Positions 1,384 to 57,585 are shown, counted from the stretch's first letter. The stretch: 64,000 bases of DNA from Bacteroidales bacterium (GCA_046546095.1 JBKGYK010000001.1:19941-83940), one strand, 5' to 3'. Program-made: numbers and translations. Notes: generated by a model not told the origin, from the letters alone.

Positions 1384-2604
1384 ATGACAGCAATGCAGGC
1401 TATGAAAAAACAATTAAGAAGAACGCTTTGGCTGGCAGGTTTATTTTGCCTTCCAATCTTAATGAGCGCGCAAAACTCATCCGATGATATTAAAATCCGG
1501 AAAGTTTGCATTGACCCCGGACATGGTGGTAGAGACCCCGGTGCTGTGGGCTCCTTTTCCTATGAGAAGGATCTTGTTCTTGATATGGCCCTGAAACTGG
1601 GCGGGTATATTGAAGAACATTTTCCTGATGTAGAAGTTATTTATACAAGAAAAACAGACAAATTTGTCAAGTTATATGAGCGGGCAAAAATTGCCAACGA
1701 TGCAAATGCTGACCTTTTTATCAGCATACACATCAATGCAGCAGGTTCTCCCAGGGCATACGGCACCGAAACATTTGCCATGGGCCTTGACAAATCCGAA
1801 GCCAATCTGGCCATAGCAAAAAAAGAAAATGCAGTGATTCTCAAAGAGGAAAATTACGAGGAAAATTACGAAGGTTTTGATCCAACCAGCCCTGAGTCTC
1901 ATATCATGTTCAGCATGTTTCAAAATGCTTACCTGGATCAGAGTCTGAACCTTGCAGCCATCGTACAGGATCAGTTCAGGGAAAGGGTAGGCCGGTTTGA
2001 CCGGGGCGTAAAACAGGCAAACTTCTGGGTTTTATACAAAGTTGCCATGCCCAGTATTCTGATTGAAGCAGGGTTTATTTCCAATCCTGAAGAAGAAAAG
2101 TTCCTCAATACAGAAAACGGAATCACCTACATGTCATCAGCAATTTTCAGAGCTTTCAAAGAGTATAAGAAAGCCTTTGAGGCCGATAATCTGCTGGCAG
2201 GTGATGAGATCGATGACTTGATAGGTGAAAATCCTCAGGAAGATACATTGGAAGAAACGGATAGTCTGACAGAAGAAACAAACAAACACAGTGAAGCTGA
2301 TTCCTCTGGATTACCAAGCTATCCGCCATCAGACAATGAAGATGAAATCTGTTTCAGGGTACAAATTGGCACAAGCAGCAAAGCCATACAAAATCCGGAT
2401 AAAGATTTCCCCGGAATTGATGATTTCTGGCAATATAAACACAACGGCAGCTACAAACATACTGCAGGAAAAACAACTGATTACCTGGAAATTATTGAGT
2501 TACAAAAAGAATTAAAATCTCAATATAAAGGTTGCTTTATCGTTGCATTTAAAAATAAAGAACGGATAAGTGTACGTGAAGCAATAGAAGCATTAAACAA
2601 ATAA
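1384..2604 (+). CDS. N-acetylmuramoyl-L-alanine amidase (Amidase_3) with C-terminal SPOR-like domain
   Basis: 406 aa with a signal peptide. Motifs CIDPGHGGRDPGA, ADLFISIHINA and GVKQANFWVL, then an acidic linker. The C-terminus ICFRVQIGTSS...GCFIVAFKNKE is SPOR-like. Confidence 0.9.
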   Translation: MTAMQAMKKQLRRTLWLAGLFCLPILMSAQNSSDDIKIRKVCIDPGHGGRDPGAVGSFSYEKDLVLDMALKLGGYIEEHFPDVEVIYTRKTDKFVKLYERAKIANDANADLFISIHINAAGSPRAYGTETFAMGLDKSEANLAIAKKENAVILKEENYEENYEGFDPTSPESHIMFSMFQNAYLDQSLNLAAIVQDQFRERVGRFDRGVKQANFWVLYKVAMPSILIEAGFISNPEEEKFLNTENGITYMSSAIFRAFKEYKKAFEADNLLAGDEIDDLIGENPQEDTLEETDSLTEETNKHSEADSSGLPSYPPSDNEDEICFRVQIGTSSKAIQNPDKDFPGIDDFWQYKHNGSYKHTAGKTTDYLEIIELQKELKSQYKGCFIVAFKNKERISVREAIEALNK

Positions 2605-2606
2605 TT

Positions 2607-3653
2607 ATGGCAAAAAACCTGAGTCGAAAATATACACTCACCGGTATCCTTGTTGTTTTGATACTGGGTTTCAGCTACTGGGGATTTAATTTTCTGAAAG
2701 GCAATGACCTCTTTGATGAGCAGGATACTTTTCATGTTGTTTATCAACAGGTAGAGGGATTGAATGTATCCTCTCCGGTAACAATGAATGGCTATGAAAT
2801 CGGGAACGTAAGCGATATATCCTTCATACCCAATACACAAGGCAAACTCATTGTGAGCATCAACCTGGATAATGAATACCAGATTCCGGATTCTTCCATC
2901 GCGAGGATTTACAGCAAGGATTTGATGGGAACCAAGGCCATTGCAATTGAGCGGAGCGGCAAACAAGCACTCCACAACTCTGGCGACACACTGATAGGAA
3001 AAACAGAAGAAAGCCTCCGGGACCAGGTAAGCATGCAAATGCTGCCAATCAAAAATCAGGCTGAGGAACTCATGAAAGAAATGCGAACGGCCATAGAAGT
3101 AGTAGGATACATCTTTAATGAAGAAACACAAAGCAACCTGAAAAACAGCTTTTCAAGCATCAAACGTACAGTAGGATATCTGGAATCCTCCACCCAGAAC
3201 CTGGATTCACTTATGACTCAGGAAAAAAGCCGCATCGCATTGATACTTGCCAATATTGACCGGATCACGGCAAATCTGAACGAAAACGGTGAGCAAATCA
3301 GCAACACAATAAATAATCTTTCTGAAATTTCTGACAGTCTGAAAGCTGTCAACATGAAACAAACCATGGCTGATGTAAATCACAGTTTACAGAACATGGC
3401 AGAAATCACTGATAAAATTAACAATGGTGAAGGAAGTCTGGGCCTGCTCATCAACAACGATTCCCTGTATAACGAGCTGCAGCGGGCCAGTTACAATCTT
3501 GACCGGCTGGTATGGGACATGCGTGCCAATCCTGAGCGCTATATCAAACTCAGGCTTTTCGATCTGCGACGCGATGTACAGGTGATTGATGAGTCTATGC
3601 TCAATAAAAGGGACAAAAAACGCCTGGAAAAGAAAAGAGAAAGAATGGAATAA
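2607..3653 (+). CDS. MlaD/MCE-family protein (lipid-transport ABC system periplasmic component)
   Basis: 348 aa with an N-terminal TM helix. MCE core FHVVYQQVEGLNVSSPVTMNGYEIGNVSDI and a long helical C-terminus. Starts 2 nt after the amidase stop. Confidence 0.85.
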   Translation: MAKNLSRKYTLTGILVVLILGFSYWGFNFLKGNDLFDEQDTFHVVYQQVEGLNVSSPVTMNGYEIGNVSDISFIPNTQGKLIVSINLDNEYQIPDSSIARIYSKDLMGTKAIAIERSGKQALHNSGDTLIGKTEESLRDQVSMQMLPIKNQAEELMKEMRTAIEVVGYIFNEETQSNLKNSFSSIKRTVGYLESSTQNLDSLMTQEKSRIALILANIDRITANLNENGEQISNTINNLSEISDSLKAVNMKQTMADVNHSLQNMAEITDKINNGEGSLGLLINNDSLYNELQRASYNLDRLVWDMRANPERYIKLRLFDLRRDVQVIDESMLNKRDKKRLEKKRERME

Positions 3654-4859
3654 TTACTTTTCAGCTTTCTTCTTTTTCCATATTTCATAACTAAGCAACA
3701 AATTAAAATTCAGCGCTGTCTTTCCATGGGCACGGATGCTCATACCCATGGTAAAACTCTCTGTCAGACCATAAGTGAAGCTATAGCGCTGAAAAAAATG
3801 CTTATCCTGGTAATCTGTTCCGTAATAAGGTGCATACATATAGGTACCCCAGTGTTGAGAAAAGACAAAATCACCCAAAATAAGTTCATGCCCTGCAAGG
3901 AATGACAACTCCCGGTAATCAACCGGCAGGTTTTCCTGTTCCATCTGCTGCTTTCGCCTGTAATTGGCATGTCCTTCCAGACCCAGGGAAAACCCGTTAA
4001 GTCGAGATACCCGTTTGCCTGCCAGTATCATTGCCCCAATGGCAGGTTTCCCGTCCTTAATGGCATCAGAGCCTTCGCTTTTGTACATGCTTCCATATAA
4101 AGATGCCGTCAGAGTGAGCAAATTATGCCAGGCAGGCTGCTCAGAAACATCCGGAAATATCACAGGATCAAATGTATAACCGGCACCCAGACCAAAAACA
4201 GGAAAATTCAGGCCCTTATTTGGCTCTTTGATTCCAATGTTGGAAATATGATTGTATTTTGCATATGCCATGATAAACCAATTTTTGTTGATGTATCTGC
4301 TCAAATACAGGTCCAGATGTGTCAATATACTCAGATGAGAACTGATAAAAAGATTTGCAGGATTGCTGTTTTCGTCATATACTTTACTGACATAAGATGC
4401 TCCAAGACCAACACGCAAGGACAGGAGAACAAAGCCCCGGTAATTTATAAAGGGTTCTGCAAAAACAATCACTGATGTTGAACTTCCCAAAACCTGTGGA
4501 TAATCAAAATTCACATGCATCAATGATACACCTGCTTTACTGAGTGGTTCACGCAAACTATGGTCAGGCCTTGCCAACAAATGAAATCCGGCTTCGATTT
4601 CCGTTCCAAAGGGATGTGCAGAACCAACATCTACAAGACTGCGGGAATGAGGGACAACAAAACCATAGTGTGGTTTCAAACCCACATAAAACGGATTATT
4701 GCTTCTCTCCTGCCCCAACACAACAAAGGATATCAGAAAAAACAGAGAAAAAACAAGACCGTATTTATGTTTTGAACATAAGAACATCACATAATAAAAA
4801 TATAAAAACCACAGATTCAAGGCAAATAATACGGATATTTTATTAAACAAATCGCTCAT
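3654..4859 (-). CDS. PagL-like lipid A deacylase / acyloxyacyl hydrolase family outer-membrane protein
   Basis: 401 aa with a beta-barrel-like alternating pattern. The His-x-Ser-Asn motif (AKYNHISNIG) is characteristic of PagL-type deacylases. The start is uncertain; the alternative is M25 at 4787. Confidence 0.55.
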   Translation of the reverse strand: MSDLFNKISVLFALNLWFLYFYYVMFLCSKHKYGLVFSLFFLISFVVLGQERSNNPFYVGLKPHYGFVVPHSRSLVDVGSAHPFGTEIEAGFHLLARPDHSLREPLSKAGVSLMHVNFDYPQVLGSSTSVIVFAEPFINYRGFVLLSLRVGLGASYVSKVYDENSNPANLFISSHLSILTHLDLYLSRYINKNWFIMAYAKYNHISNIGIKEPNKGLNFPVFGLGAGYTFDPVIFPDVSEQPAWHNLLTLTASLYGSMYKSEGSDAIKDGKPAIGAMILAGKRVSRLNGFSLGLEGHANYRRKQQMEQENLPVDYRELSFLAGHELILGDFVFSQHWGTYMYAPYYGTDYQDKHFFQRYSFTYGLTESFTMGMSIRAHGKTALNFNLLLSYEIWKKKKAEK

Positions 4860-4909
4860 TTGACTGTCATATAATTATCAAATTACAAGCAAACAAATCA
4901 AATACTGAG

Positions 4910-6313
4910 ATGATTAATTATACCGGAACCTATACAGACCAATACCAGCTCACGATGGCGCAAGCCTACTTCAAACAAGGCAAAGCCGATGATAAAGCTG
5001 TATTTGATTACTTTTTCAGAAAATTGCCTTTTGATAGTGGCTATGCCGTTTTTGCAGGCCTTAATGATTTGCTTGATATACTGGAACAACTCCATTTTGA
5101 TAAAAAAGAAATTGACTACCTGAAAGGTTTGGGGTTTTCAGATGACTTTCTCGACTTTCTGAAAAATTTTCGATTCCGCGGCAAGATATTCAGCAGCAGC
5201 GAGGGTGATATCGTCTTCCCTACCAGGCCTGTGCTGCAGGTAGAGGCCACAATAATCGAAGCTCAGTTAATTGAAACTCTCCTGCTGAATGTTCTGAATT
5301 TTCAAACCCTCATTGCCACCAAAGCAAGCAGAATGAAATTGATAGCCGGTGAAAAACAACTCGTTGATTTTGGTTTACGCAGAGCCCAGGCTGCAGGTGG
5401 GTATTATGCCAGCAAGGCAGCAGTGGCAGGTGGTTTTAACGCCACAAGCAATGTCCGTGCCGGCATGGATTTCAATATCCCCGTATCCGGCACCATGGCT
5501 CACAGCTTTATCCAGTCCTATGATGACGAGCTCAGTGCTTTCCGCGCTTATGCCGCTTCCTATCCGGATGACTGTGTGCTGCTTGTAGATACCTATGATA
5601 CACTAAAAAGTGGTGTTCCCAATGCCATCAAAACAGGAAAAGAGCTGGAGAAAAAGGGACACAAACTTAAAGGCATCCGTCTGGACAGTGGTGACCTGGC
5701 CTATATGGCAAAAGAAAGTCGAAGACAACTTGATGAAGCCGGCCTGGATTATGTGAAAATTGCTGCATCCAACCAACTGGATGAACAGGTTATCAAAAGC
5801 CTGATGGAACAAAATGCACCCATTGATTTTTTTGGTGTAGGAACCAGTCTGGTCACAGGGAATCCTGACGCTGCACTTGACGGTGTGTACAAATTATCAT
5901 ACGCCGGAGGAAAACCACGGCTTAAACTCTCAGAAAATGTAGAGAAAATCACTCTGCCACATAAGAAACAAGTATACCGCCTTATCGGTACTGATGGCAA
6001 TTTTTTGGGTGGAGACCTTGTCAGTCTGAGAGATGAAGAAGATATTGAAGAGATGTTTCATCCACATATCAGGGATAAAAGTATGAATACTGAAAACTGT
6101 CAAAAAGAAGCACTTCTGAAACCGGTGATGGAACATGGCAAACGACTCAAAGCCGGAGAGCGACTGGATGAGATTGCAGAATTCAGCCAGTCACAATTAA
6201 AAAAATTGCCCGATGAGTATAAACGTTTTACCAATCCGCATATATACAAAATTGGCATAAGTAAAGCTTTGCAGAAAGAACGCAATAAACTCATAGAAGC
6301 ACACAATCAATAA
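4910..6313 (+). CDS. pncB: Nicotinate phosphoribosyltransferase
   Basis: 467 aa. The N-terminus YTDQYQLTMAQAYF, SGTMAHSFIQ and the overall layout are typical of NAPRTase. Confidence 0.9.
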   Translation: MINYTGTYTDQYQLTMAQAYFKQGKADDKAVFDYFFRKLPFDSGYAVFAGLNDLLDILEQLHFDKKEIDYLKGLGFSDDFLDFLKNFRFRGKIFSSSEGDIVFPTRPVLQVEATIIEAQLIETLLLNVLNFQTLIATKASRMKLIAGEKQLVDFGLRRAQAAGGYYASKAAVAGGFNATSNVRAGMDFNIPVSGTMAHSFIQSYDDELSAFRAYAASYPDDCVLLVDTYDTLKSGVPNAIKTGKELEKKGHKLKGIRLDSGDLAYMAKESRRQLDEAGLDYVKIAASNQLDEQVIKSLMEQNAPIDFFGVGTSLVTGNPDAALDGVYKLSYAGGKPRLKLSENVEKITLPHKKQVYRLIGTDGNFLGGDLVSLRDEEDIEEMFHPHIRDKSMNTENCQKEALLKPVMEHGKRLKAGERLDEIAEFSQSQLKKLPDEYKRFTNPHIYKIGISKALQKERNKLIEAHNQ

Positions 6314-6325
6314 AAAGTAAACTGT

Positions 6326-6943
6326 ATGAATACACTCATAATTATTGATGCTCAAAACGACTTTATGCCCGGAGGCAGCCTTGCTGTGCCCGACGGAGAC
6401 AAAATAATTCCGGTAATCAATGCATTGCAGGAGCATTTTGATTTGGTTATTGCTACCCAGGACTGGCACCCGGAAGGTCACGGCAGTTTTGCCTCTGCCC
6501 ATGCCGGAAAACAGGCATTTGACAAAACCCAACTCAATGGCCTGGAACAAATCCTCTGGCCCGATCATTGTGTACAAAAGAGCAAAGGAGCAGATTTTCA
6601 CCCGGATCTGGAACAGGCTTCCATAGAGGCCATATTCCGAAAAGGCATGGACCCCGGCATTGACAGTTACAGCGGATTTTACGACAACGGACACAAAAAA
6701 AACACCGGCCTGGCCGGATATCTGCGTGAACGTGGTGCAAAAGAACTGTATTTCTGTGGCCTGGCGGCTGATGTTTGTGTGCAATATTCTGTTAAAGATG
6801 CCATCAGGGAAGGCTTTTCTGCCAGATTGATTACCGATGCCACACGTGCCATAGATGGTGATGCTTTTGAAGATATCAGACAGGAGCTGAAAGAAAAGGG
6901 ATGCAGAATGATGCAGTCTGATGAGCTAATCCGTTCCATGTAA
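6326..6943 (+). CDS. pncA: Nicotinamidase / pyrazinamidase (isochorismatase fold)
   Basis: 205 aa with LIIIDAQNDFMPGGSLAV, DWHP..H and the catalytic-Cys region LYFCGLAADVCV. Confidence 0.9.
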   Translation: MNTLIIIDAQNDFMPGGSLAVPDGDKIIPVINALQEHFDLVIATQDWHPEGHGSFASAHAGKQAFDKTQLNGLEQILWPDHCVQKSKGADFHPDLEQASIEAIFRKGMDPGIDSYSGFYDNGHKKNTGLAGYLRERGAKELYFCGLAADVCVQYSVKDAIREGFSARLITDATRAIDGDAFEDIRQELKEKGCRMMQSDELIRSM

Positions 6944-7016
6944 AAACAAAACGCAATACATACCATATGGATAAATATTATGTAATTCCCGGAACAATGC
7001 AAACAATTATGAGAAG

Positions 7017-22973: not shown

Positions 22974-23663
22974 ATGCGTGATGTTTTGTTTTTATGTATA
23001 ATAATTTTTAATGGCACATTGCTTTTTTCCCGGGAGTTACCGGATTCATGCCTGTACGAAAAGGATAATTGGCCTGAGGTTGCTGACAGCCTGAGCGACA
23101 GCATCACCCGAGACGTAAGCATTGACACCAGCTACTCTCCGGCATTCTACACAGCTTTAGCCCATTATCCGGATCTGTATGATACGGAAATACATTTTAA
23201 AGAAAAAGCCATCAAAACAACTGCAGCCACGCGGCCAAAATTCTTTTCTGTATTTAAAAAGCCGGAAAACCGGTCATATCAAATATTTGTTAATGACAAA
23301 AACAAACCGGAAAAGTCCGTTTATTACAAGGACTTACCATACAATGCACGCATAGGACTGCTTGGCCATGAATTATCTCATATTCTGGATTTCAGCAAGA
23401 TGAGTTCTATGGAGATTTTCGGGATGGGGATAAAATATGTTTTCAGTCCAAAATACAGAAAAGAGCTGGAATACCAGGTTGACCAACAGGCCATTGAACA
23501 CGGACTGGGTTGGCAGGTGTACACATTCACCGACTATATTAACAACAAAAGTCAGGCCTGTCCTGAGTACATCAGTTATAAAAGGAAATATTACATGTTA
23601 CCTGAAGAAATTATCGAATATATCAATCTTACTGACAGCATCAGCGAGGTGGCTGATTATTGA
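22974..23663 (+). CDS. Hypothetical secreted protein with HExxH zinc-metallopeptidase-like motif
   Basis: 229 aa with a hydrophobic N-terminus and LLGHELSHILDF (HExxH). No family recognised. Confidence 0.5.
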   Translation: MRDVLFLCIIIFNGTLLFSRELPDSCLYEKDNWPEVADSLSDSITRDVSIDTSYSPAFYTALAHYPDLYDTEIHFKEKAIKTTAATRPKFFSVFKKPENRSYQIFVNDKNKPEKSVYYKDLPYNARIGLLGHELSHILDFSKMSSMEIFGMGIKYVFSPKYRKELEYQVDQQAIEHGLGWQVYTFTDYINNKSQACPEYISYKRKYYMLPEEIIEYINLTDSISEVADY

Positions 23664-25398
23664 GTTCATGAATTTGCTGCTTTCCTTTCCGGCGATGCAT
23701 TTTTTTTATGTTTTTTTCATCGTCACGGGATGTTTCAATAAAAGGAGCGTGGATATAAAACATAGTGTTCATTTGTTTCCTTTCAGAATCTTTCACATCA
23801 GAAACTGCTGCTTTTTTCCGCACAGGCGGATAATAAAGGAAATAATTTTCATCGTAAAACACCAGACGATAGAGGTTATGCAGCATCAGATAATCCATAC
23901 CGGCAAAATCATAATCGGCTTTGGCCTTGCGTGTAGGTTCTGTGGTGGGCCAGACAATACGTGAAGATGTACACCAATGCACTGAGTATCCTTTTTTGGT
24001 GGTATCGGAAAAAGGACCGTTTTCAGGAGCTTCAAGCAACAAATCGGCAAACCAGGTAGAATCTGCAACCCATGCCTCACTCCCTTTGTAGTAATCCTTG
24101 AGCCCCTCTTTGTTGAGCAGGTAATTGGTCAGTACATAGTAGCGGTATTCTTCAGGATTTCCAAGATTGCGCAGGGCTTCAATCACAGGCTCGCGCTGCC
24201 CGTGGACATTGCCAAAAGCTGCCAGTGAACGGGTTTTATTGTCATCCCAGTTGCGCGGTAATGCAATGGCTGCTCCGAAAGGCAATTTCAACTCTTTATA
24301 AAACACCGTCTCAAAAAGCCATTTTGTAAATCCCCGTCCGGAACCTTCAAAATGCAAATCATTTCTGCCGGTAATTTCCTGCACAGTTTCAGCAAATCCG
24401 TATGCATTCACCAGAATCCCAAAATCTTCGCCAGAGCCTTCCCGCACGGGATGCTCCGTTACGGGATTCATAATATACCAGCGGGTAGCCATCAGTTTTA
24501 AAAACTCTACTGGCCGGATTTTGCCCATGCCATACCAGGGTTTAAAAACCATGGATGCCTGTTTTTTATCCTGATGCAGATTGCTGTACAAGCGAAGGCT
24601 CATGTCTTTTGCCCAGCTCCTGAAATCAATTGTATCCCCTGTCATAATGCCTTTCGACCTCAGGTAATCCGGTATCATATCATTCACAAACCGCACCGGG
24701 ATATCCTTAACGGACTCTCTGGACAGAAAGTGCTCCATGATAGCCATGGCCTCCAGGTGATGTACTATCACATCCTGACTCAAACCCTGCATTGGAATGG
24801 TTCCTTTCTGAAAAATGGATTTATAACGGTTGGTTCCGGTATATTGCTCATCCGCTTTACCCAATTCAAATCCGAAATGTTTATGATTAGCCTGCCAAAA
24901 TCCAAAACTCACATCATCACGAATCATAAAACCATTGATATCTGCGGGATAACGGATATAGTTACTGATAGAGTCACCTTCATGCAGAATTTTTTTGTTG
25001 TGATAAGTGCGCAAATTATATTCCGAATACAAATCCAGCCGTTCCAGCGCCAGCATGGCATAATACAATTGGGCGAGGCTGTGCTCATAATCTTCTTTGT
25101 TTCGTTTTAACAATTCGATTTCTGTCACAAGGAAAGAGATGTAATTATTAACGTTACTGTTCCCATCACTCCAGCCCAGGATATCGCGGCCCCATTTGTT
25201 GGTACGCCTGTCTACGGCAGGAATATTTACGCCATAATATTCAACGTCTTCACTGACAATCAAAAACTCATTTTCCAGCCTTTCCCTGTAATCGTTGTAT
25301 TTTGCCATCATCCCGATATGGGGATAATCCTGAGCATGAGTAAGCAAAGGCCAGGCCGTTACCAAAAAAACCAGTATGAGCCTGCAATTATTTTGCAT
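23641..25398 (-). CDS. Hypothetical secreted protein (about 585 aa), no recognisable family
   Basis: Long uninterrupted ORF. The signal peptide MQNNCRLILVFLVTAWPLLTHAQ starts at ATG 25398, which overlaps the CDF stop by 11 nt. The 3' end overlaps the convergent HExxH gene by 23 nt. Confidence 0.6.
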   Translation of the reverse strand: MQNNCRLILVFLVTAWPLLTHAQDYPHIGMMAKYNDYRERLENEFLIVSEDVEYYGVNIPAVDRRTNKWGRDILGWSDGNSNVNNYISFLVTEIELLKRNKEDYEHSLAQLYYAMLALERLDLYSEYNLRTYHNKKILHEGDSISNYIRYPADINGFMIRDDVSFGFWQANHKHFGFELGKADEQYTGTNRYKSIFQKGTIPMQGLSQDVIVHHLEAMAIMEHFLSRESVKDIPVRFVNDMIPDYLRSKGIMTGDTIDFRSWAKDMSLRLYSNLHQDKKQASMVFKPWYGMGKIRPVEFLKLMATRWYIMNPVTEHPVREGSGEDFGILVNAYGFAETVQEITGRNDLHFEGSGRGFTKWLFETVFYKELKLPFGAAIALPRNWDDNKTRSLAAFGNVHGQREPVIEALRNLGNPEEYRYYVLTNYLLNKEGLKDYYKGSEAWVADSTWFADLLLEAPENGPFSDTTKKGYSVHWCTSSRIVWPTTEPTRKAKADYDFAGMDYLMLHNLYRLVFYDENYFLYYPPVRKKAAVSDVKDSERKQMNTMFYIHAPFIETSRDDEKNIKKMHRRKGKQQIHELNNQPPR

Positions 25399-26251
25399 CC
25401 ACCTGAATGGTTGGTTCAACATCAAGTTTTTCTCTGATAGCCACACGTACTTTTTGTTGAATTTCATTTACCTGATACAGGGACATATCACCAGGCAATG
25501 AGATATGAAAAGTCAGTTCATCGTGGTCGCCGTATGAATGCACATGGAAATGGTGAGAAAGAACATCAAAGCCGGCGACATTGTTGGCAATTTCCCTTAC
25601 CTGTTTTACAAGATTTCCATCGGGTTTTCTTCCCAAAATCACATCAATTGCTTTGACGATGATGCGCCAGGCTGTGTAAAATATTATCAGGGCAACAAGA
25701 ATCCCAAGCACACCATCAATCCACCAGGCATACTTTTGAAACATGATTCCAATCAAAATCACCACTGAAGATATGGCGTCACTTCGATGATGCCATGCAT
25801 CAGCTTTCAGTGTCAAAGAATTGAGTTTTTTGCCCACGTACAGTGAATACTGTGCCATGCCTTCTTTCACCAGCAGGGAAATGATGGTAACGACAATGGC
25901 CAGAGTTCCGAAATATGTGGATTCTTTTGAAATCAGTTTCTTGATGGCCTCAATACCAAAATTTGCACCTATTCCGATGAGAATCACACCGATAATAATT
26001 GAAGCTACCAGTCTAAAACGGCCATGTCCGTATGGATGCATCATATCGGGAGGCTTATTGGCTGCTTTGTAAAACACGAGCAGAACAATGGACGAAGCAG
26101 AATCGCTAAGTGTGTGCCAGGCATCTGCCATGAGTGCAACACTACCACTGACAACACCAGCCCAAAGCTTTAGGACAAAAAGCAAGACATTGCCTGCAAC
26201 AGCAATCCATCCGGCCAACATAGCCTTTCCATATGATACCTTGCTGGACAT
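25388..26251 (-). CDS. Cation diffusion facilitator (CDF) family metal efflux transporter
   Basis: 287 aa with 6 TM helices. ADAWHTLSDS and ADAWHHRSDA metal-site motifs, and a C-terminal cytoplasmic domain. Confidence 0.9.
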   Translation of the reverse strand: MSSKVSYGKAMLAGWIAVAGNVLLFVLKLWAGVVSGSVALMADAWHTLSDSASSIVLLVFYKAANKPPDMMHPYGHGRFRLVASIIIGVILIGIGANFGIEAIKKLISKESTYFGTLAIVVTIISLLVKEGMAQYSLYVGKKLNSLTLKADAWHHRSDAISSVVILIGIMFQKYAWWIDGVLGILVALIIFYTAWRIIVKAIDVILGRKPDGNLVKQVREIANNVAGFDVLSHHFHVHSYGDHDELTFHISLPGDMSLYQVNEIQQKVRVAIREKLDVEPTIQVDAK

Positions 26252-46821: not shown

Positions 46822-46965
46822 ATGAAATACACATATGAAATATTACAACTGATCGCCTGGCCCGTCCTGATTTATGTCAGCTACTTCATTTCCATGAGAA
46901 TGATTGACAGATTTGAAAAAAAAATCAAAACAGATAAACCGACCAGATCAGAAAATCAGAAATGA
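46822..46965 (+). CDS. Unlisted 47-aa single-TM ORF after cydB (candidate small bd-oxidase accessory subunit)
   Basis: Manual translation: MKYTYEILQLIAWPVLIYVSYFISMRMIDRFEKKIKTDKPTRSENQK. It starts 17 nt after the cydB stop, and its TGA overlaps the ATG of the next gene (ATGA). It falls below the track's size cut-off. Confidence 0.4.
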   Translation: MKYTYEILQLIAWPVLIYVSYFISMRMIDRFEKKIKTDKPTRSENQK

Positions 46966-47345
46966 TGAAAAGCAAACAAGGATTATTTCTTCTCCTGGCG
47001 GCTATTGTGATGGTTTCCGCGGGATGTAACCGCAAACTTCCATGCGAAAAGATATCTTCGGATAACAGCTTTTACCGTGCCAGCGGTGTGGCTTTCAGTC
47101 AAAGACGCGATATGGCCCAGGAGAAAGCGCTCAATGTAGCCAAGCGCAATCTGGTAAAGGAAATAGCCACGGACATGCATAAAAAAACCGGCGTTAATGA
47201 AAAGTTGCTGATGGATACACTCAAGAAAGGCATTACAATACAGGAAATGGAAGTTGTCTGTAAACATACTGACCGCCACAAGGGCTCATTTCGCTGCAGC
47301 CTGGCCATAGAAATGCCTGTAAAACGATTTGAAGATATTGGTTAG
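46962..47345 (+). CDS. Hypothetical lipoprotein
   Basis: 127 aa with signal peptide and lipobox VSAGC. The helical A/K-rich middle (AQEKALNVAKRNLVKEIA) is vaguely LPP20-like. Confidence 0.6.
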   Translation: MMKSKQGLFLLLAAIVMVSAGCNRKLPCEKISSDNSFYRASGVAFSQRRDMAQEKALNVAKRNLVKEIATDMHKKTGVNEKLLMDTLKKGITIQEMEVVCKHTDRHKGSFRCSLAIEMPVKRFEDIG

Positions 47346-47763: not shown

Positions 47764-48579
47764 TTATTGGGTGTTGCCAGATGAGCTATCATTGATATAA
47801 TTAACTATTTCAATTACAGGTGCTGTCCAAATGGTATCTCTGTTTTCCTTTAAATATTCAAGTAATTTTCGATGTTCATTTTTATCAAGCACTGATGAAT
47901 GCCCCTCGTCTATACCATGAAAAACAAACACAATTAACATTTCTTTCTTCCTGGCTTTATTGATAAACCCAACGAGTTCATCATAAGAGTAACCATCAAC
48001 AGGAATAGCTCTGATATTAAATAAATCTATATTGTTTAAAGAATTCATGCCAGGAGTAACTCCACGGGCAGCAATAAAATCTGAATGTAAATCAGACATA
48101 TATAAAGAGTCTCCGGCAAATTTATTGCCACATGGATAGGCATAAGTTCTTTCTGTCTCACCATCAACAAGTTGAAACAATGTATTGGCTAGTCTGATTT
48201 CATCCAGAATTCGGTTAATCGAATAATTATCCATATCATAATCTGATTTCACCCATTCATTTCCTTTTGTTTTACTGTTACACGGATGAAATAACGAGTG
48301 ATTACCCAGTTCATGCCCATTATTTGCCAGACTCCGCCATTCTTCAATTCTATTATGAAAAGAAACGGCATTTCCATAGACATAAAATGTTGCATTCAAT
48401 CCTAATGAGTCAAGTAAGGGTGCAACAATATCAAGATGACAACCCAAAGCATCATCATAAGTAAGAGCAACTGCACATTTTCTATCGTTCCATTTTACTG
48501 TATCTTTTTTTTGTCCATTGGCTTGGATTAAAAATATAAAGAACATAATAACGAAAACCAGGATTTTTTTTATTTGCAT
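47764..48579 (-). CDS. Polysaccharide deacetylase (NodB homology domain) family protein
   Basis: 271 aa with a signal peptide, VALTYDDA, NGHELGNHSLFH and YAYPCG. G+C is markedly lower than in the neighbouring genes. Confidence 0.85.
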   Translation of the reverse strand: MQIKKILVFVIMFFIFLIQANGQKKDTVKWNDRKCAVALTYDDALGCHLDIVAPLLDSLGLNATFYVYGNAVSFHNRIEEWRSLANNGHELGNHSLFHPCNSKTKGNEWVKSDYDMDNYSINRILDEIRLANTLFQLVDGETERTYAYPCGNKFAGDSLYMSDLHSDFIAARGVTPGMNSLNNIDLFNIRAIPVDGYSYDELVGFINKARKKEMLIVFVFHGIDEGHSSVLDKNEHRKLLEYLKENRDTIWTAPVIEIVNYINDSSSGNTQ

Positions 48580-48926
48580 ATTCTTTTTATTTAGCTAATC
48601 ATTAGTGAATGTGTTATTATATTCAATTGTCCGGTAAAACCTCCAGCTCTCAGGCCTGCTTGCAATTGCGTGCATATAGCGTTTGGCATTTCGATGCACT
48701 TTCCTATCAGGTTGCCGTTTCATTTATAACGTTTTATGTTGTTTAAAATCCATCAATTTCATCCTTTGTTTCTCATTACTTCTTGAACTAAATCCGCCAG
48801 CCAGCGGATAGCCTGTTCACCCAAAGATAGTCATATTCTTTGGTTCTACATCAAATTCACATGCCTAAGGCAGACAGGAGTGGGTAATGATTGAATTATT
48901 AATTTTGAGTGAAAATAACGAATTAG

Positions 48927-49082
48927 AATATCAGGGCTAAAGCCCATTCCATCTTTCATGTGCTTATCACCCTGACCTGAAGGCCAGGGTTAATTACTCG
49001 AAGGCATATTCATCAAAAAAAACCCGTCCTTTAGGGCGGGGTTTTTAAGGCGAAAAACACAATGGGCTTTAGCCCTGATATT
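48927..49082. repeat. 156-bp element: perfect 22-bp terminal inverted repeats around a 112-bp core
   Basis: AATATCAGGGCTAAAGCCCATT (48927-48948) against AATGGGCTTTAGCCCTGATATT (49061-49082), exact reverse complements. Each arm contains GGGCT-AA-AGCCC. Confidence 0.9.
49015..49046. terminator. Bidirectional intrinsic-terminator-like hairpin inside the IR element
   Basis: A8-CCCGTCC-TTTA-GGGCGGG-G-T5. On the plus strand there is one G.U pair and a T5 tail. On the minus strand there is one A.C mismatch and a T8 tail. Confidence 0.6.
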
Positions 49083-49485
49083 ATATTTGATAAAATATTC
49101 CACGGAAATTGCAGTAGAACCTAATTTTTTTATGATGATTGCATATCTGATGATTAAAAAACCAATTCATATCTGCGAAAAAGAACAACACCAACGATCC
49201 TGGAGCAGGCAGAAATTGCGGTCATGAATTTGAAACCCTCATCGACAAGTTATCAAGCCAGATAAGAATGAGCAGACAAAACAAAAGGAGGTTGCCCACA
49301 GAGCGAAAAATTATCACAAAACCCGAAGCAGCAATGTCTATACCGGAATTCAGTGCTTGCAATCAGTTGCAAATAATATTTCCTGGCTGGTGAGCCAGGG
49401 TTTATCCTTTTAATAGCAGGTATTTTCATGACAACAATCCAACACTCCTTCTGAAAATATTCAAAACTGGCAATACTGAGCATGT

Positions 49486-50400
49486 TTAGTTTCTTTCCAT
49501 AAAATCCAGAACATCTCTCCAGATGAGGGCTTTTCCCTCTTCGTTCAGAACCTCATGGCGCAGGTGGGGATAAATCATCATATCTGGTGCTACGCCAAAT
49601 TTCTCAAAACGGCGCTTAACTTTTTTGACACCGATGCCGTAATTCCCAACGGGGTCATCGGCACCGGAAATCAGTAGTACCGGCAAGCCTTTTAGCAGTT
49701 TACGGAGTTCTCTTTTTCTGTGAATCACATTGATGCCATACAACAAATCGCGATAAAAAGCTCCGCTGGCCACAAAGCCACACCAGGGATCCCTTGTATA
49801 GGCTTGCACTACGGATTTATCGGAACAAATCCAGGCATATTCGCTGTTTTCATCTTTAAACTTTTTGTTATACGCACCAAAACTGAGTTTGTGCAGGAAG
49901 CCGGCATTTTGTTCGGGATCTTTAAAAAAGAGGCTCAGATTAGCCAGGGCAAAGCCTCCCAGTCTTTCAGGCAGGGTGAGATTTCCGGTTCCCGACAGCA
50001 CCCAGGCCTTTGCCATGCGCGGATGGCGTATCATGAGACAACGAACAAAGAAACTTCCCATACTGTGTCCCAGAAGATAAACCGGCAATTTGTAGGTTTC
50101 CTGCAACTGATCATTAAAACGTTTCAGATCCTGGCATACCTTATTCCAGCCGTTTTTCTCATCAAAATAGCCGGTTTTTCCTGCCTCGCTACCGGTCACA
50201 CCATGCCCGGGATGATCATTGGCAGCCACAATAAAACCATTTTTGCACATATACCCGGCAAATTCCGCATAACGGGCTGAATGTTCTGCCATGCCATGCA
50301 CAATCTGAAGCACGCCTCTGGCCTCTGTTTCCGGCATCCATATGCGGTAAAACACATGTTGCCCTGTGGCTGACGGAAAACGTCCCTGATGTTCTGTCAT
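49486..50400 (-). CDS. Alpha/beta hydrolase (lysophospholipase / monoglyceride lipase-like)
   Basis: 304 aa with HGMAEHSARY and the nucleophile elbow GHSMGS. Confidence 0.85.
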   Translation of the reverse strand: MTEHQGRFPSATGQHVFYRIWMPETEARGVLQIVHGMAEHSARYAEFAGYMCKNGFIVAANDHPGHGVTGSEAGKTGYFDEKNGWNKVCQDLKRFNDQLQETYKLPVYLLGHSMGSFFVRCLMIRHPRMAKAWVLSGTGNLTLPERLGGFALANLSLFFKDPEQNAGFLHKLSFGAYNKKFKDENSEYAWICSDKSVVQAYTRDPWCGFVASGAFYRDLLYGINVIHRKRELRKLLKGLPVLLISGADDPVGNYGIGVKKVKRRFEKFGVAPDMMIYPHLRHEVLNEEGKALIWRDVLDFMERN

Positions 50401-51497
50401 GATTTGAAATATTTATCAAAATCCTTTAGTCCAAATTCTTTCCATAGCCCTTTCATTTCTTCAAACAGGGCAGGCGGTACAGGAACTCCATATACAGCAC
50501 GCTCCAGATAACTAAGATGCTCTTTTTCACCAGCCGTATAAATGTGTTTCTGATCCGGCATTTTCTTTGATTTCCGCAAACTGCGCAAGATATCGCCGGT
50601 AATGCGTTTGAAAGATTTTATGTCGTTGAATGCTTCAATGTTTATGGCGATGAAGAAATGGCCAAGCCTGTAGGGAACTTTTTTACCGTCGCTCATACCG
50701 GAGAGAGCGTGCATAAAACCACCGCCTTGCAGAGCAGCAGAGAGTATTTCCACCACGGTAGCATAACCATATCCTTTGTATCCACCGCCATCTTCGCCTA
50801 TGCCCCCAAGCGGTGTGAGTGCAGCTTCCTTATCAACCAGGGCTTTGAGAACAGCTTTGGGATCTGTCATGGTTTTTCCTTCCCGGTTTATCACCCAGCC
50901 TTCCGGCAGCTCTTTGCCGTGTTTTTCGTAATATTCAAATTTTCCGCGCTGTGACACAGATGTGGCACAATCCAGAAAAAAGGGGAAATCTTCATCGCTG
51001 GGCATCACAAAAGTCAGTGGGTTGGTACCAAGCATGTTCTCAACACCAAAAGTAGGCGCAATGGATGGGCGCGCATTGGTTCCGGTGATGCCGATCATAT
51101 TTTCTTTTTCTGCCATCATACCATAATAACCGGCAATTCCGTAATGGGAAGAATTCCGTACGGCCACCATACCGATACCCTGTTCCCTTGCTTTATCAAT
51201 GGCCATCTGCATTGCTTTTTTGCTGATGACATGTCCCATGCCGTTATTGCCGTCCAGAACAGCTGTAGCACCAAACTCTTTTATCACATCCACCGTGGTT
51301 TCAGGCTTCAGTATACCATCATCAATACGATCCAGATAAATGGGTTTGAGACGGTTAATGCCGTGGGAATCTATACCAAGTTTATCGGCGCTTATCAACA
51401 CATCTGCAACAATCGCTGCATCAGCCTCAGGTACGCCTTTTTTCATCAGACATTGTTGCATAAAATTCTCAAGTACATCAAAAGGGATATTTCTCAT
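50397..51497 (-). CDS. Ldh_2 family oxidoreductase (malate/L-lactate/ureidoglycolate dehydrogenase-like)
   Basis: 366 aa with ADKLGIDSHGINRL and SHYGIAGYY. Overlaps the hydrolase gene by 4 nt. Confidence 0.85.
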   Translation of the reverse strand: MRNIPFDVLENFMQQCLMKKGVPEADAAIVADVLISADKLGIDSHGINRLKPIYLDRIDDGILKPETTVDVIKEFGATAVLDGNNGMGHVISKKAMQMAIDKAREQGIGMVAVRNSSHYGIAGYYGMMAEKENMIGITGTNARPSIAPTFGVENMLGTNPLTFVMPSDEDFPFFLDCATSVSQRGKFEYYEKHGKELPEGWVINREGKTMTDPKAVLKALVDKEAALTPLGGIGEDGGGYKGYGYATVVEILSAALQGGGFMHALSGMSDGKKVPYRLGHFFIAINIEAFNDIKSFKRITGDILRSLRKSKKMPDQKHIYTAGEKEHLSYLERAVYGVPVPPALFEEMKGLWKEFGLKDFDKYFKS

Positions 51498-56373: not shown

Positions 56374-57585
56374 TCACGGTCCACAAAAATAATCACCACC
56401 TGTGTTGTCATGGGTATTGTCTGATTCCTCCAGATTGAGGTTGGGGTTACATGCTTCGGGAGCAGCGTAAAACACACAATTCTCCAGATGATTGAAATGA
56501 ACATGATGTACATTGAGGTTCGGTGAATCCCACATTCTGATTGCTCCCATATTTTCGGAATCAGCAGCGTATTCTATTTCAGCGTGACCGATTTCGTTGT
56601 TCGGATTTTGAGTTTGATCAAAAACAAAACCTCCCCAGGCACCTGCTGTTTTTGTTTTTCCGGTAAAAATCAGGGGTTTTTCCGGAGCTCCAACGGCATA
56701 CAGGCCTGCCTGATCTGATTCTCCGACAGTAAGCGTAGCTGCATCTTCAAAGGCCATTGTTATGCCGGGACTTAGTGTAAGCACGCCGGAAGCAACATAT
56801 ACAGGCTTGTCTATATGATATGGCACAGCGTGATCCTCCCACAACACATCATTAGTAATAATCGCAGGATTGCTAAAACCATCCGTACCAACCACAATGG
56901 CATCCTGAGCATTGCCGGTAAAAGAACCGCCCTCAATGGCACCTACCATATTGGCAGGAATAAACACTGGCACCATATTGCCACTTAGCCTGTTGTTGAC
57001 AAAAGAGCCCAGGCTCGCAGACTGGTTGCTGATACGCAAGCCATAGCGTCCGCTGTTGCGTATGCTGCTGTTATTGATGGCGGCTGATGCATCTGCATCG
57101 ACAAAAACAGAAGCGATATCACCATGTGGACTAAATTCAAACCCGCCACCATATTCTACCACACAATAATTGAGCAAGTTATTTTCGTTTTCAGAGAGAA
57201 AAGCAATAAAACCCCACGCTCCGGCCACTTTTTCTTCACCGGTAAATACAATGGAATCATCAGGGGTTCCGTCGGCTTTCAGTGAACCACGGACATCCAG
57301 TGCTGCATCCTCAGCAAAAGCAATTTCCACACCCGGTTCAATCTGCAAATCGCCCCTGACCACAGACCTTCGCGTAATCAGATAATCAAGGCCTTCTCTG
57401 TGGTTTTCCAAAACCAGAAGAGAGTCTTCAGGTACCAGTATATTGTTGTCATGGGCACCCTGCGGAAGCTGTACCGGTATCAAATCCGGCATTCTGTCAT
57501 CATCTGCAGGCTCACAAGCAGGAATGAGGATAAAAAGCATGGCAAGTCCGGACAAAACAATCAACAACTTTTGCAAATTCTGCAT
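56374..57585 (-). CDS. Hypothetical lipoprotein with internally duplicated beta-helix-like module
   Basis: 403 aa with lipobox LIPAC. Two copies of a ...PG(V/I)x(I/M)AFxxDAxLxV...(I/L)(V/I)FTGxxKxAGAWGG(F)xF pattern. Confidence 0.6.
   Translation of the reverse strand: MQNLQKLLIVLSGLAMLFILIPACEPADDDRMPDLIPVQLPQGAHDNNILVPEDSLLVLENHREGLDYLITRRSVVRGDLQIEPGVEIAFAEDAALDVRGSLKADGTPDDSIVFTGEEKVAGAWGFIAFLSENENNLLNYCVVEYGGGFEFSPHGDIASVFVDADASAAINNSSIRNSGRYGLRISNQSASLGSFVNNRLSGNMVPVFIPANMVGAIEGGSFTGNAQDAIVVGTDGFSNPAIITNDVLWEDHAVPYHIDKPVYVASGVLTLSPGITMAFEDAATLTVGESDQAGLYAVGAPEKPLIFTGKTKTAGAWGGFVFDQTQNPNNEIGHAEIEYAADSENMGAIRMWDSPNLNVHHVHFNHLENCVFYAAPEACNPNLNLEESDNTHDNTGGDYFCGP

Follow-up and report, generated by a model that had tools for sequence, protein, structure and literature searches.

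The sequence analysed here is a stretch of 64,000 nt from a Bacteroidales bacterium (GCA_046546095.1 JBKGYK010000001.1:19941-83940), called the window below, with coordinates counted from its first letter. The element under study, a 156-bp inverted repeat at 48927-49082, is located in a 906-nt gap (48580-49485) between genes of the - strand. An Ldh_2 gene (50397-51497) and an alpha/beta hydrolase gene (49486-50400) lie upstream of the element, and a polysaccharide deacetylase gene (47764-48579) is its downstream neighbour. The gap is the longest in the window without an open reading frame (ORF) of at least 120 aa, in agreement with an earlier note on this DNA, which had described the site as the largest ORF-poor gap.

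The element is bounded by a perfect inverted repeat. The 22-mer AATATCAGGGCTAAAGCCCATT at 48927-48948 on the + strand recurs as its exact reverse complement at 49061-49082 (22/22). No further copy of the 22-mer is present in the window at up to three mismatches, and none of 100 dinucleotide shuffles (0/100) contained any match. A repeat search extended the repeat to 37-nt arms, 48921-48957 and 49052-49088, which are 84% complementary. The left arm carries the tag (A)TCA followed by a short hairpin, hairpin 1, GGGC-TAAA-GCCC (48934-48945). The right arm, on the - strand, carries the same tag and hairpin inverted, so that the hairpin reads GGGC-TTTA-GCCC at 49064-49075 on the + strand. Between the arms, the core holds a hairpin, CCCTGACC-TGAA-GGCCAGGG (48970-48989), whose single A.C mismatch on the + strand corresponds to a G.U pair on the - strand, and a terminator-like structure at 49015-49046 made of A8 (49015-49022), the stem CCCGTCC-TTTA-GGGCGGG (49023-49040), a G and T5 (49042-49046). 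The perfect repeat, the mini-palindromes within the arms, the core hairpin with one mismatch and the A8-stem-T5 structure had all been pointed out in the earlier note and are present. Its description of the last of these as a bidirectional terminator is only partly true. A terminator scan accepted the stem at 49023-49040 as a + strand reading only, where it includes a G.U pair and is followed by T5, whereas the - strand reading contains a C.A mismatch and is weaker, though it is followed by U8. The RNA folding energies of the 43-nt context of the stem are -14.9 kcal/mol for the + strand and -10.8 kcal/mol for the - strand.

How, then, are these parts related to one another? They are arranged as two copies of a single module. 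The covariance model R1, built from 21 gap-free instances of this module, gave two strong matches in the window when run with filters off, both of them full length and facing inward. The left module (48926-48994, + strand; 57.1 bits, E 2e-13) comprises hairpin 1, a 21-nt pyrimidine-rich spacer, a second hairpin (hairpin 2, 48970-48989) and TTAAT. The right module (49017-49083, - strand; 55.4 bits, E 7e-13) comprises hairpin 1, the spacer TGTGTTTTTCGCCTTAAAAA and hairpin 2, which here is the terminator-like stem. The next-best match in the window scored 15 bits. The two matches face each other, and what had been taken for a bidirectional terminator is the second hairpin of the right-hand copy; the module itself thus accounts for the terminator-like hairpin. 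The flanking A8 and T5 runs are specific to the window copy and its closest relatives, L073 and L103, in which related hairpins are followed by TTTTTAAGGC(G)AAAAA. The central spacer between the inward-facing modules (48995-49016) is not conserved in the family. At its outer ends the element is preceded by GAATTAG, begins with AATATCAGG, ends with CCTGATATT and is followed by ATATTTG, with no direct repeat between the flanks.

The module belongs to a dispersed family. It is about 65 nt long and consists of TCA, GGGC-TAAA-GCCC, a T-rich spacer of 17-24 nt, an 8-bp GC-rich stem with a TNAA loop, and TTA. An exact scan for its 18-nt arm core, ATCAGGGCTAAAGCCCAT, was made in a collection with one genome per species and returned 109 genome stretches, compared with about 17 expected by chance from the collection size. 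Some 30 of the matches have no further features, are mostly intragenic in unrelated phyla, and fit the chance background. Hairpin 2 follows the arm core in 81 of 112 copies, at a distance of 17-24 nt from hairpin 1 (mode 18) and with an unconserved intervening sequence; its 8-bp GC-rich stem encloses the loop TAAA, TGAA or TTAA and is followed by TTA. The left half of the window element conforms exactly to this arrangement. When R1 was applied to 100 fetched loci, 185 modules were recovered, more than 60 of them without the exact seed. A plain pattern identified 134 modules in 80 loci, while shuffled loci yielded none. Module loci number at least 80 across Bacteroidota, Ignavibacteriota, Chlorobi-like and Brocadiaceae metagenome-assembled genomes (MAGs). 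The hosts comprise Bacteroidota, Ignavibacteriota, Chlorobi-like, Balneolaceae and Delongbacteria MAGs, several Brocadiaceae and two other MAGs labelled Planctomycetota and Elusimicrobiota; the sole cultured strain is Runella defluvii. An inverted partner was found for 27 seeds elsewhere, giving 14 compact doublets (87-97 nt) and 13 of 145-286 nt. Copy numbers look low, with a single element in the 64 kb of the window; elsewhere an 8-kb locus holds up to 6 modules, and an assembly 1-12 exact arm cores. The elements are largely intergenic (84/92), between tandem (37), convergent (16) or divergent (8) genes. The plasmid and phage collections gave no match, and no description of the module or its sequence was found in the open literature that was searched. 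The only textual literature match, a Haemophilus influenzae repetitive extragenic palindromic (REP) sequence, GTAGGGTGGGCTTTAGCCCACC, that shares GGGCTTTAGCCC, was taken as a coincidence of form and not as homology. An integron attC site, suggested by TAAC...GTTA around hairpin 2, was rejected, as 26 nt is too short and there are neither extrahelical bases nor an integrase.

Substitutions within the family preserve the structure. In an alignment of 145 distinct modules, 96.9% of the cells form standard pairs, and both partners have changed in 10 of the 12 pairs. The observed covariation score was 0.442, compared with 0.133 after shuffling and at most 0.05 when the partners were slid by 1-3 columns. 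This alignment started from the exact 18-mer seed and was then fitted to R1, and thus leans to the structure. The same conservation picture was obtained from an unfitted alignment of 21 sequences, and in 62 modules not picked by the exact 18-mer the tag frequencies for T/C/A were 0.89/0.79/0.77 and those of the stem positions 0.85-1.0. The compensatory variants of hairpin 1, such as GGAC/GTCC and CGGC/GCCG, occur within one arm. That compensation is found within and not between the arms speaks for arms that fold on themselves and against a long arm-to-arm helix, and bears out the previous suggestion of an element acting at the DNA level in place of one long RNA helix. The module also has a direction. 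The tag TCA is conserved at its 5' end and TTA at its 3' end, and the loops are TAAA, TTAA or TGAA in 141 modules as against TTTA or TTCA in 3. An apparent strand preference from wobble pairs, 15 C.A/A.C versus 2 G.T in the seeded set, fell to 26 versus 13 (p = 0.053) in a larger set; as the mismatch excess faded, no conclusion on the preferred folding strand was drawn.

Compensatory changes in both stems, strand-specific loops (141 versus 3) and T-rich spacers are also what a structured RNA would offer, and the module could be read as a small RNA or a cis-acting element composed of a hairpin, a U-rich linker and a terminator hairpin, with the locus holding two convergent copies, much as the earlier note had proposed a pair of convergent small RNAs. 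A sequence resembling the TAnnTTTG promoter box (the Bacteroidetes -7 box), TAATTTTG, is present at 48900-48907 on the + strand, 19 nt before the left arm and pointing into the element. The Rfam check that the note had recommended returned 0 families at the gathering threshold over the whole window, and a relaxed scan of 48300-49700 (E up to 10) gave only chance-level matches, the best of them at 24 bits against cut-offs of 47-60 and driven by the terminator-like hairpin. No conserved sequence is found upstream of the module. Single modules show no strong bias relative to gene orientation (13 same, 8 opposite), and modules also occur as the inverted pairs around a transposase gene that are described below. 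Hairpin 2 in the family is followed by TTAAT and not by a U run, G.U pairs are not preferred on the module strand (13 wobble versus 26 C.A/A.C), and covariation of the hairpins is equally expected for the single-stranded DNA substrates of HUH enzymes. A structured RNA is therefore quite improbable, and the convergent small RNAs found no support.

A homologous doublet exists in an unrelated context. In L103, from another uncultured Bacteroidales MAG, a doublet is homologous to that of the window from arm to arm, in the order arm, GTGTTTTTCG, terminator-like hairpin, hairpin 2 and second arm, around a longer and unrelated central spacer. The similarity runs from TATCAGGGC to GCCCTGA; outside these limits the sequences of the two loci are unrelated. 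A related MAG (L027) carries the left module alone at its orthologous site. Comparison of the 906-nt gap with the fetched loci showed similarity for 48921-49099 and for no other part. Deacetylase orthologues at 73-80% identity have other upstream neighbours and no module. In L073, three head-to-tail modules are found at 1312-1807 and 3540-3833 with a spacing of 212-213 nt, each preceded by a hairpin and then TTTTTAAGGCAAAAAT, 89% identical to 49030-49081 of the window; the orientation of the arm relative to the TTTTTAAGGCAAAAAT-hairpin is opposite to that in the window. A CRISPR array, considered on account of the 212-nt spacing in L073, was rejected since each unit consists of a complete module and a further hairpin, and there are no unique spacers.

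The dispersal of the arms bears directly on the invertible attenuator put forward in the earlier note, in which a site-specific recombinase would flip 48949-49060 between the arms and thereby change the terminator strength facing the hydrolase operon. Invertons are common in Bacteroidales, to which the host belongs. As with the invertible promoters of Bacteroides, a short intergenic segment lies within an inverted repeat of a Bacteroidales genome, in this case a perfect 22-bp repeat around a 112-bp core with an asymmetric terminator-like hairpin, and a Logan contig stops 11 nt beyond the right arm. Unlike those promoters, however, the element has no promoter in its core and no recombinase nearby, and its arms belong to a dispersed family. 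Since they are a module conserved across phyla, with a hairpin that covaries within each arm, they are not a locus-specific crossover site. In many doublets of the family, the arms are about 50 nt apart and enclose one shared palindromic hairpin, so that inversion would change almost nothing. Pfam searches of all ORFs of at least 120 aa in the window revealed no integrase, resolvase, recombinase or transposase domain. Two assemblies span the site, the window and GCA_964522185.1, and over 2.8 kb they differ at four positions (48832, 48851, 49221 and 49224), namely two single-nucleotide polymorphisms (SNPs) and one indel with an adjacent SNP, all of them intergenic and outside the element; the 156-bp element and the flanking genes are identical, and the orientation is the same in both. 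Exact contig scans of genome and metagenome collections gave 0 matches to the inverted junction; the normal core junction likewise gave 0 matches in the metagenomes. The species with this locus is absent from these collections, which renders the search void with regard to inversion. On this evidence an invertible segment is very unlikely. As a separate observation, four short-read contigs from other samples break inside the gap, at 48720 (L004), 48757 (L003), 48850 (L002) and 49093 (L006). The break at 48850 adjoins the SNP at 48851, and that at 49093 is 11 nt beyond the right arm. The breaks other than the last occur at SNPs away from the arms. This pattern suggests strain variation or a repeat-induced break, with a geometry unfit for a simple inversion.

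The family is linked to a transposase gene. Clustering of the ORFs in the fetched loci identified one recurrent small neighbour, a protein of 139-155 aa, and no other recurrent neighbour, the larger clusters being judged by eye; representatives of these looked like generic sensor-kinase, ABC-transporter and glycosyltransferase proteins. The small protein matches Pfam Y1_Tnp (PF01797) at 82-100 bits and passes the NCBIfam IS200 equivalog model at 64-71 bits (cut-off 55). Its nearest solved relative is IS608 TnpA, and its matches in the PDB are IS608 and ISDra2 TnpA, with no TnpA-REP chain among them. With its homologues it measures 139-157 aa and has a conserved C-terminal tail and the motifs DH[LIV]H (HuH) and YxxxQxxHH, the latter as YI.NQ.EHH in 48 of 52 homologues. 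The gene, tnpA, adjoins the arm core in L020, L022, L041, L043, L046, L085, L096 and L106, as determined by tblastn.

The layout around the gene is constant, with a module on the - strand just upstream, tnpA on the + strand, and a module on the + strand that starts at the 3' end of the gene. In L046 the three are at 1449-1513 (-), 1530-1958 (tnpA) and 1947-2011 (+), in L020 at 4687-4753 (-), 4762-5190 (tnpA) and 5179-5245 (+), and in L085 at 6156-6221 (-), 6303-6767 (tnpA) and 6719-6784 (+). Inverted modules flank the gene in L020, L046, L085, L096, L122, L127, L131 and L133. Hairpin 1 is gene-proximal and hairpin 2 is outside, so that these modules face outward. The protein ends in NQG followed by the stop in L020, L046 and L022, and in FQG in L122, encoded by CAG GGC TAA/TGA; the stop codon is thus the loop of hairpin 1. 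A QG ending occurs in 10 of the 52 database homologues.

As a test independent of the seed, the contigs of six database homologues of the transposase were analysed. R1 matches with the same two-sided geometry were obtained in five of these six protein-found loci (L122, L127, L131, L133 and, weakly, L125), and the sixth, L130, contains only hairpin-2-like stems. Complete inward doublets like that of the window are present beside tnpA in L122, L131 and L133. In addition, the right module of the window matches by blastn the module beside tnpA in L127-L129, loci that were found through the protein only. No R1 match was obtained in the control loci L116-L119, deacetylase orthologues of about 24 kb in total.

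Several loci of the family have further features. In L085, tandem units of 46-47 nt at 5650-6300 and 6770-6990 contain half or whole copies of hairpin 2 (...AAAGTCCGAGGTTAATGTG...), and five full modules occur in 1.3 kb around the gene, a mosaic like a bacterial interspersed mosaic element (BIME). In L041, from a Bacteroidetes MAG, the Y1 transposase gene (about 6767-6974, - strand) is interrupted by some 130 nt that contain another type of palindrome, CGTCATTGCGAAGGAGG...TTCGCAATGACG; a repeat with a CGTC tag seems to have inserted into tnpA. Beyond the insert the reading frame continues and ends at a GGGCTAAAGCCC hairpin. In several contigs of the Brocadiaceae MAG CAYHFB01, the distance between a module and the end of the contig is no more than about 200 nt, for example at contig starts in L015, L054, L058, L062 and L093 and at contig ends in L037 and L063, which suggests an active multi-copy insertion sequence (IS) that fragments the assembly. 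The CAYHFB01 loci share a flank of about 45 nt beyond the arm, which may correspond to the 5' end of tnpA. By tblastn, codons of tnpA were detected only in two other Brocadiaceae loci, L043 and L106, where the first 30-40 of them are found about 15-20 nt beyond the arm.

The transposase likewise bears on the nature of the inverted repeat. At 156 bp, intergenic and non-coding, with perfect 22-bp terminal inverted repeats, the element has the outline of a classical miniature inverted-repeat transposable element (MITE) mobilised by a DDE transposase. Neither the window element nor the L103 doublet is flanked by a direct duplication, the arms are themselves hairpins with compensatory substitutions, and the only protein that recurs beside the module is a Y1 HUH transposase, all of which makes a DDE-type MITE scarcely credible. 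The suggestion of a MITE or a solo pair of IS ends in the earlier note was nevertheless close, as the element is a gene-less doublet of modules that form the ends of Y1 elements.

The analysis establishes that the element belongs to the module family, that substitutions in the family preserve the structure, that the module is linked to a transposase gene and that a homologous doublet recurs in a different context. The 156-bp repeat is, in our judgement, probably a gene-less, non-autonomous REP/BIME-like (MITE-like) doublet of the modules that flank IS200-like Y1 (HUH) transposase genes elsewhere. In single-stranded DNA, for example at a replication fork, each module would fold into two hairpins, to which a cognate Y1 transposase from another part of the genome would bind. 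The enzyme would cut and rejoin the DNA next to the conserved tags, and the doublet would thereby be copied or moved. IS608 TnpA, and Escherichia coli TnpA-REP with REP/BIME, are known to bind folded single-stranded DNA hairpins in vitro and to cleave and rejoin DNA next to a conserved motif (PMC3333891, PMC8266576). By analogy with these enzymes, we infer that the same hairpin binding and cleavage may operate in the module family, and that the doublet may be mobilised in trans.

Several observations weigh against this interpretation. The exact 18-mer seed and the fit to the model inflate the apparent conservation in the 145-module alignment. The transposase failed the NCBIfam REP_Tyr_transpos model (25-30 bits against a cut-off of 80), and a 2018 survey reported no REPs for the subclass of the associated transposases (PMC6006769). 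The tblastn search found no Y1 transposase gene in the 64-kb window, which, together with the Pfam result, bears out the earlier remark that neither a recombinase nor a transposase is encoded there. One element per 64 kb is far below the density of classical REPs. Target-site duplications were absent at the window element and at the L103 doublet, and no empty insertion site was found, a conserved flank being unreadable from two insertion sites; mobility is thus deduced from dispersal alone. Finally, hairpin 1 is outside in the doublet and inside in the tnpA unit, and the doublet is therefore not a simple internal-deletion derivative of that unit.

An effect on local transcription would be compatible with the doublet interpretation as a secondary, co-opted function. 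The - strand transcript of the Ldh_2 and hydrolase genes would meet hairpin 1 and a U-rich tract, hairpin 2 with U8, and then the two hairpins of the left module. Judged from its sequence, hairpin 2 of the right module with its A8 and T5 runs probably ends transcription from either side; in particular, transcripts of the - strand hydrolase operon would stop there, ahead of the deacetylase promoter. A local role as a terminator or in RNA stabilisation is plausible on these grounds. One could go further and regard the element solely as an immobile host feature, namely as a cluster of intrinsic terminators and of hairpins that stabilise mRNA, placed where the Ldh_2/hydrolase operon ends and without any link to transposition in this lineage. 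Its position between the end of one - strand operon and the start of the next - strand gene, its terminator-like hairpin (U8 on the - strand, T5 on the + strand), the excess of family elements between convergent over divergent genes (16 versus 8) and the lack of a transposase in the window are all in keeping with such a feature. It would leave unexplained the 18-nt sequence shared across phyla, the fixed spacing, the TCA and TTA tags, the modules that bracket Y1 genes and the L103 doublet in its unrelated context, and is in our view unlikely.

The doublet can be compared with two groups of known systems. The first is formed by REP, BIME and REPIN sequences and the Y1 enzymes that accompany them (RAYT, TnpA-REP; REPtrons) in Enterobacteria, Pseudomonas and Stenotrophomonas (PMC2817692, PMC3333891, PMC8266576, PMC3116915). 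Both are short GC-rich palindromic hairpins that follow a conserved tag, are intergenic, occur singly or as inverted doublets, and have covarying stems; in both, inverted copies or doublets lie on either side of a gene for a small HUH Y1 transposase, and side effects as terminators and in mRNA stabilisation are plausible. In contrast, the REP tag is GTAG or CGTC whereas that of the module is TCA, and the module is composite, joining two dissimilar hairpins with a fixed interval of 17-24 nt. The copy number of the module looks low relative to that of REPs, at one element in 64 kb here and between 1 and 12 exact arm cores in a genome. A given REP is as a rule confined to one species or genus, while the module arm is common to several phyla. 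The enzymes also differ, since that of the module is IS200-like (class 1, YxxxQxxHH) and RAYT/TnpA-REP is of class 2 (Y...NP); with this class 1 enzyme, the module does not qualify as a strict member of the RAYT/REP family.

The second group is the IS200/IS605 family (IS608, ISDra2, IS200) together with its gene-less derivatives. Here the resemblance is in the HUH Y1 transposase that passes the IS200 model and in subterminal hairpins at both ends, and the Brocadiaceae contig ends near the module fit a multi-copy, IS-like element. Classical IS200/IS605 elements have asymmetric ends with hairpins on one strand (PMC6006769). The ends in the module family, in contrast, are inverted repeats of about 65 nt, and classical IS200/IS605 membership fails for this reason.

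In sequence the transposase agrees with the 'subclass 1.2' defined by Quentin et al. 2018 (PMC6006769), described as about 148 aa long with DH[IV]H, YIKNQKEHH and a conserved C-terminal tail, and as occurring in Cyanobacteria and Bacteroidetes. According to that survey, subclass 1.2 is low-copy, has no REP and generally lacks IS200-type terminal structures, whereas the genes described here are flanked by inverted two-hairpin modules, which are also dispersed in gene-less form. We tentatively propose that subclass 1.2 Y1 transposases might drive a two-hairpin REP/BIME-like family in Bacteroidota, Ignavibacteriota, a Chlorobi-like group and anammox Planctomycetota, with symmetric composite ends and a stop codon within an end hairpin, a family intermediate in mechanism and evolution between IS200 and domesticated REPtrons, of which the window element would be a gene-less doublet. 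This wider proposal is possible and falls short of even odds.

As the relic of a mobile element, the doublet would not be annotated as a phase-variable switch or as a pair of small RNAs. REP/BIME-type repeats and their Y1 transposases have been documented mainly in Proteobacteria and Cyanobacteria. R1 provides a searchable link between a repeat and an IS200-like subclass previously without cognate DNA, and the module is a candidate substrate. The model would also aid in annotating both hairpins between genes and breaks in the assemblies of MAGs from Bacteroidota, Ignavibacteriota and Brocadia. The geometry poses the question of how a Y1 enzyme would handle symmetric, inverted two-hairpin ends.

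A few minor features of the surrounding DNA are added here. A second match to TAnnTTTG, TATCTTTG, is found at 48829-48822 on the - strand, downstream of the element; some 240 nt separate it from the start of the deacetylase gene, for which it is a candidate promoter. A sigma-70 promoter scan gave a number of sites not above that in shuffles and zero sites in the core. The tRNA/tmRNA scan found none. Five ORFs of 127-608 aa in the window (46962-47345, 22974-23663, 23641-25467, 56374-57585 and 78-668) have no Pfam match at E up to 1e-5. The ORF of 127 aa and another of 47 aa follow the cytochrome bd genes, a position that is kept in other assemblies.

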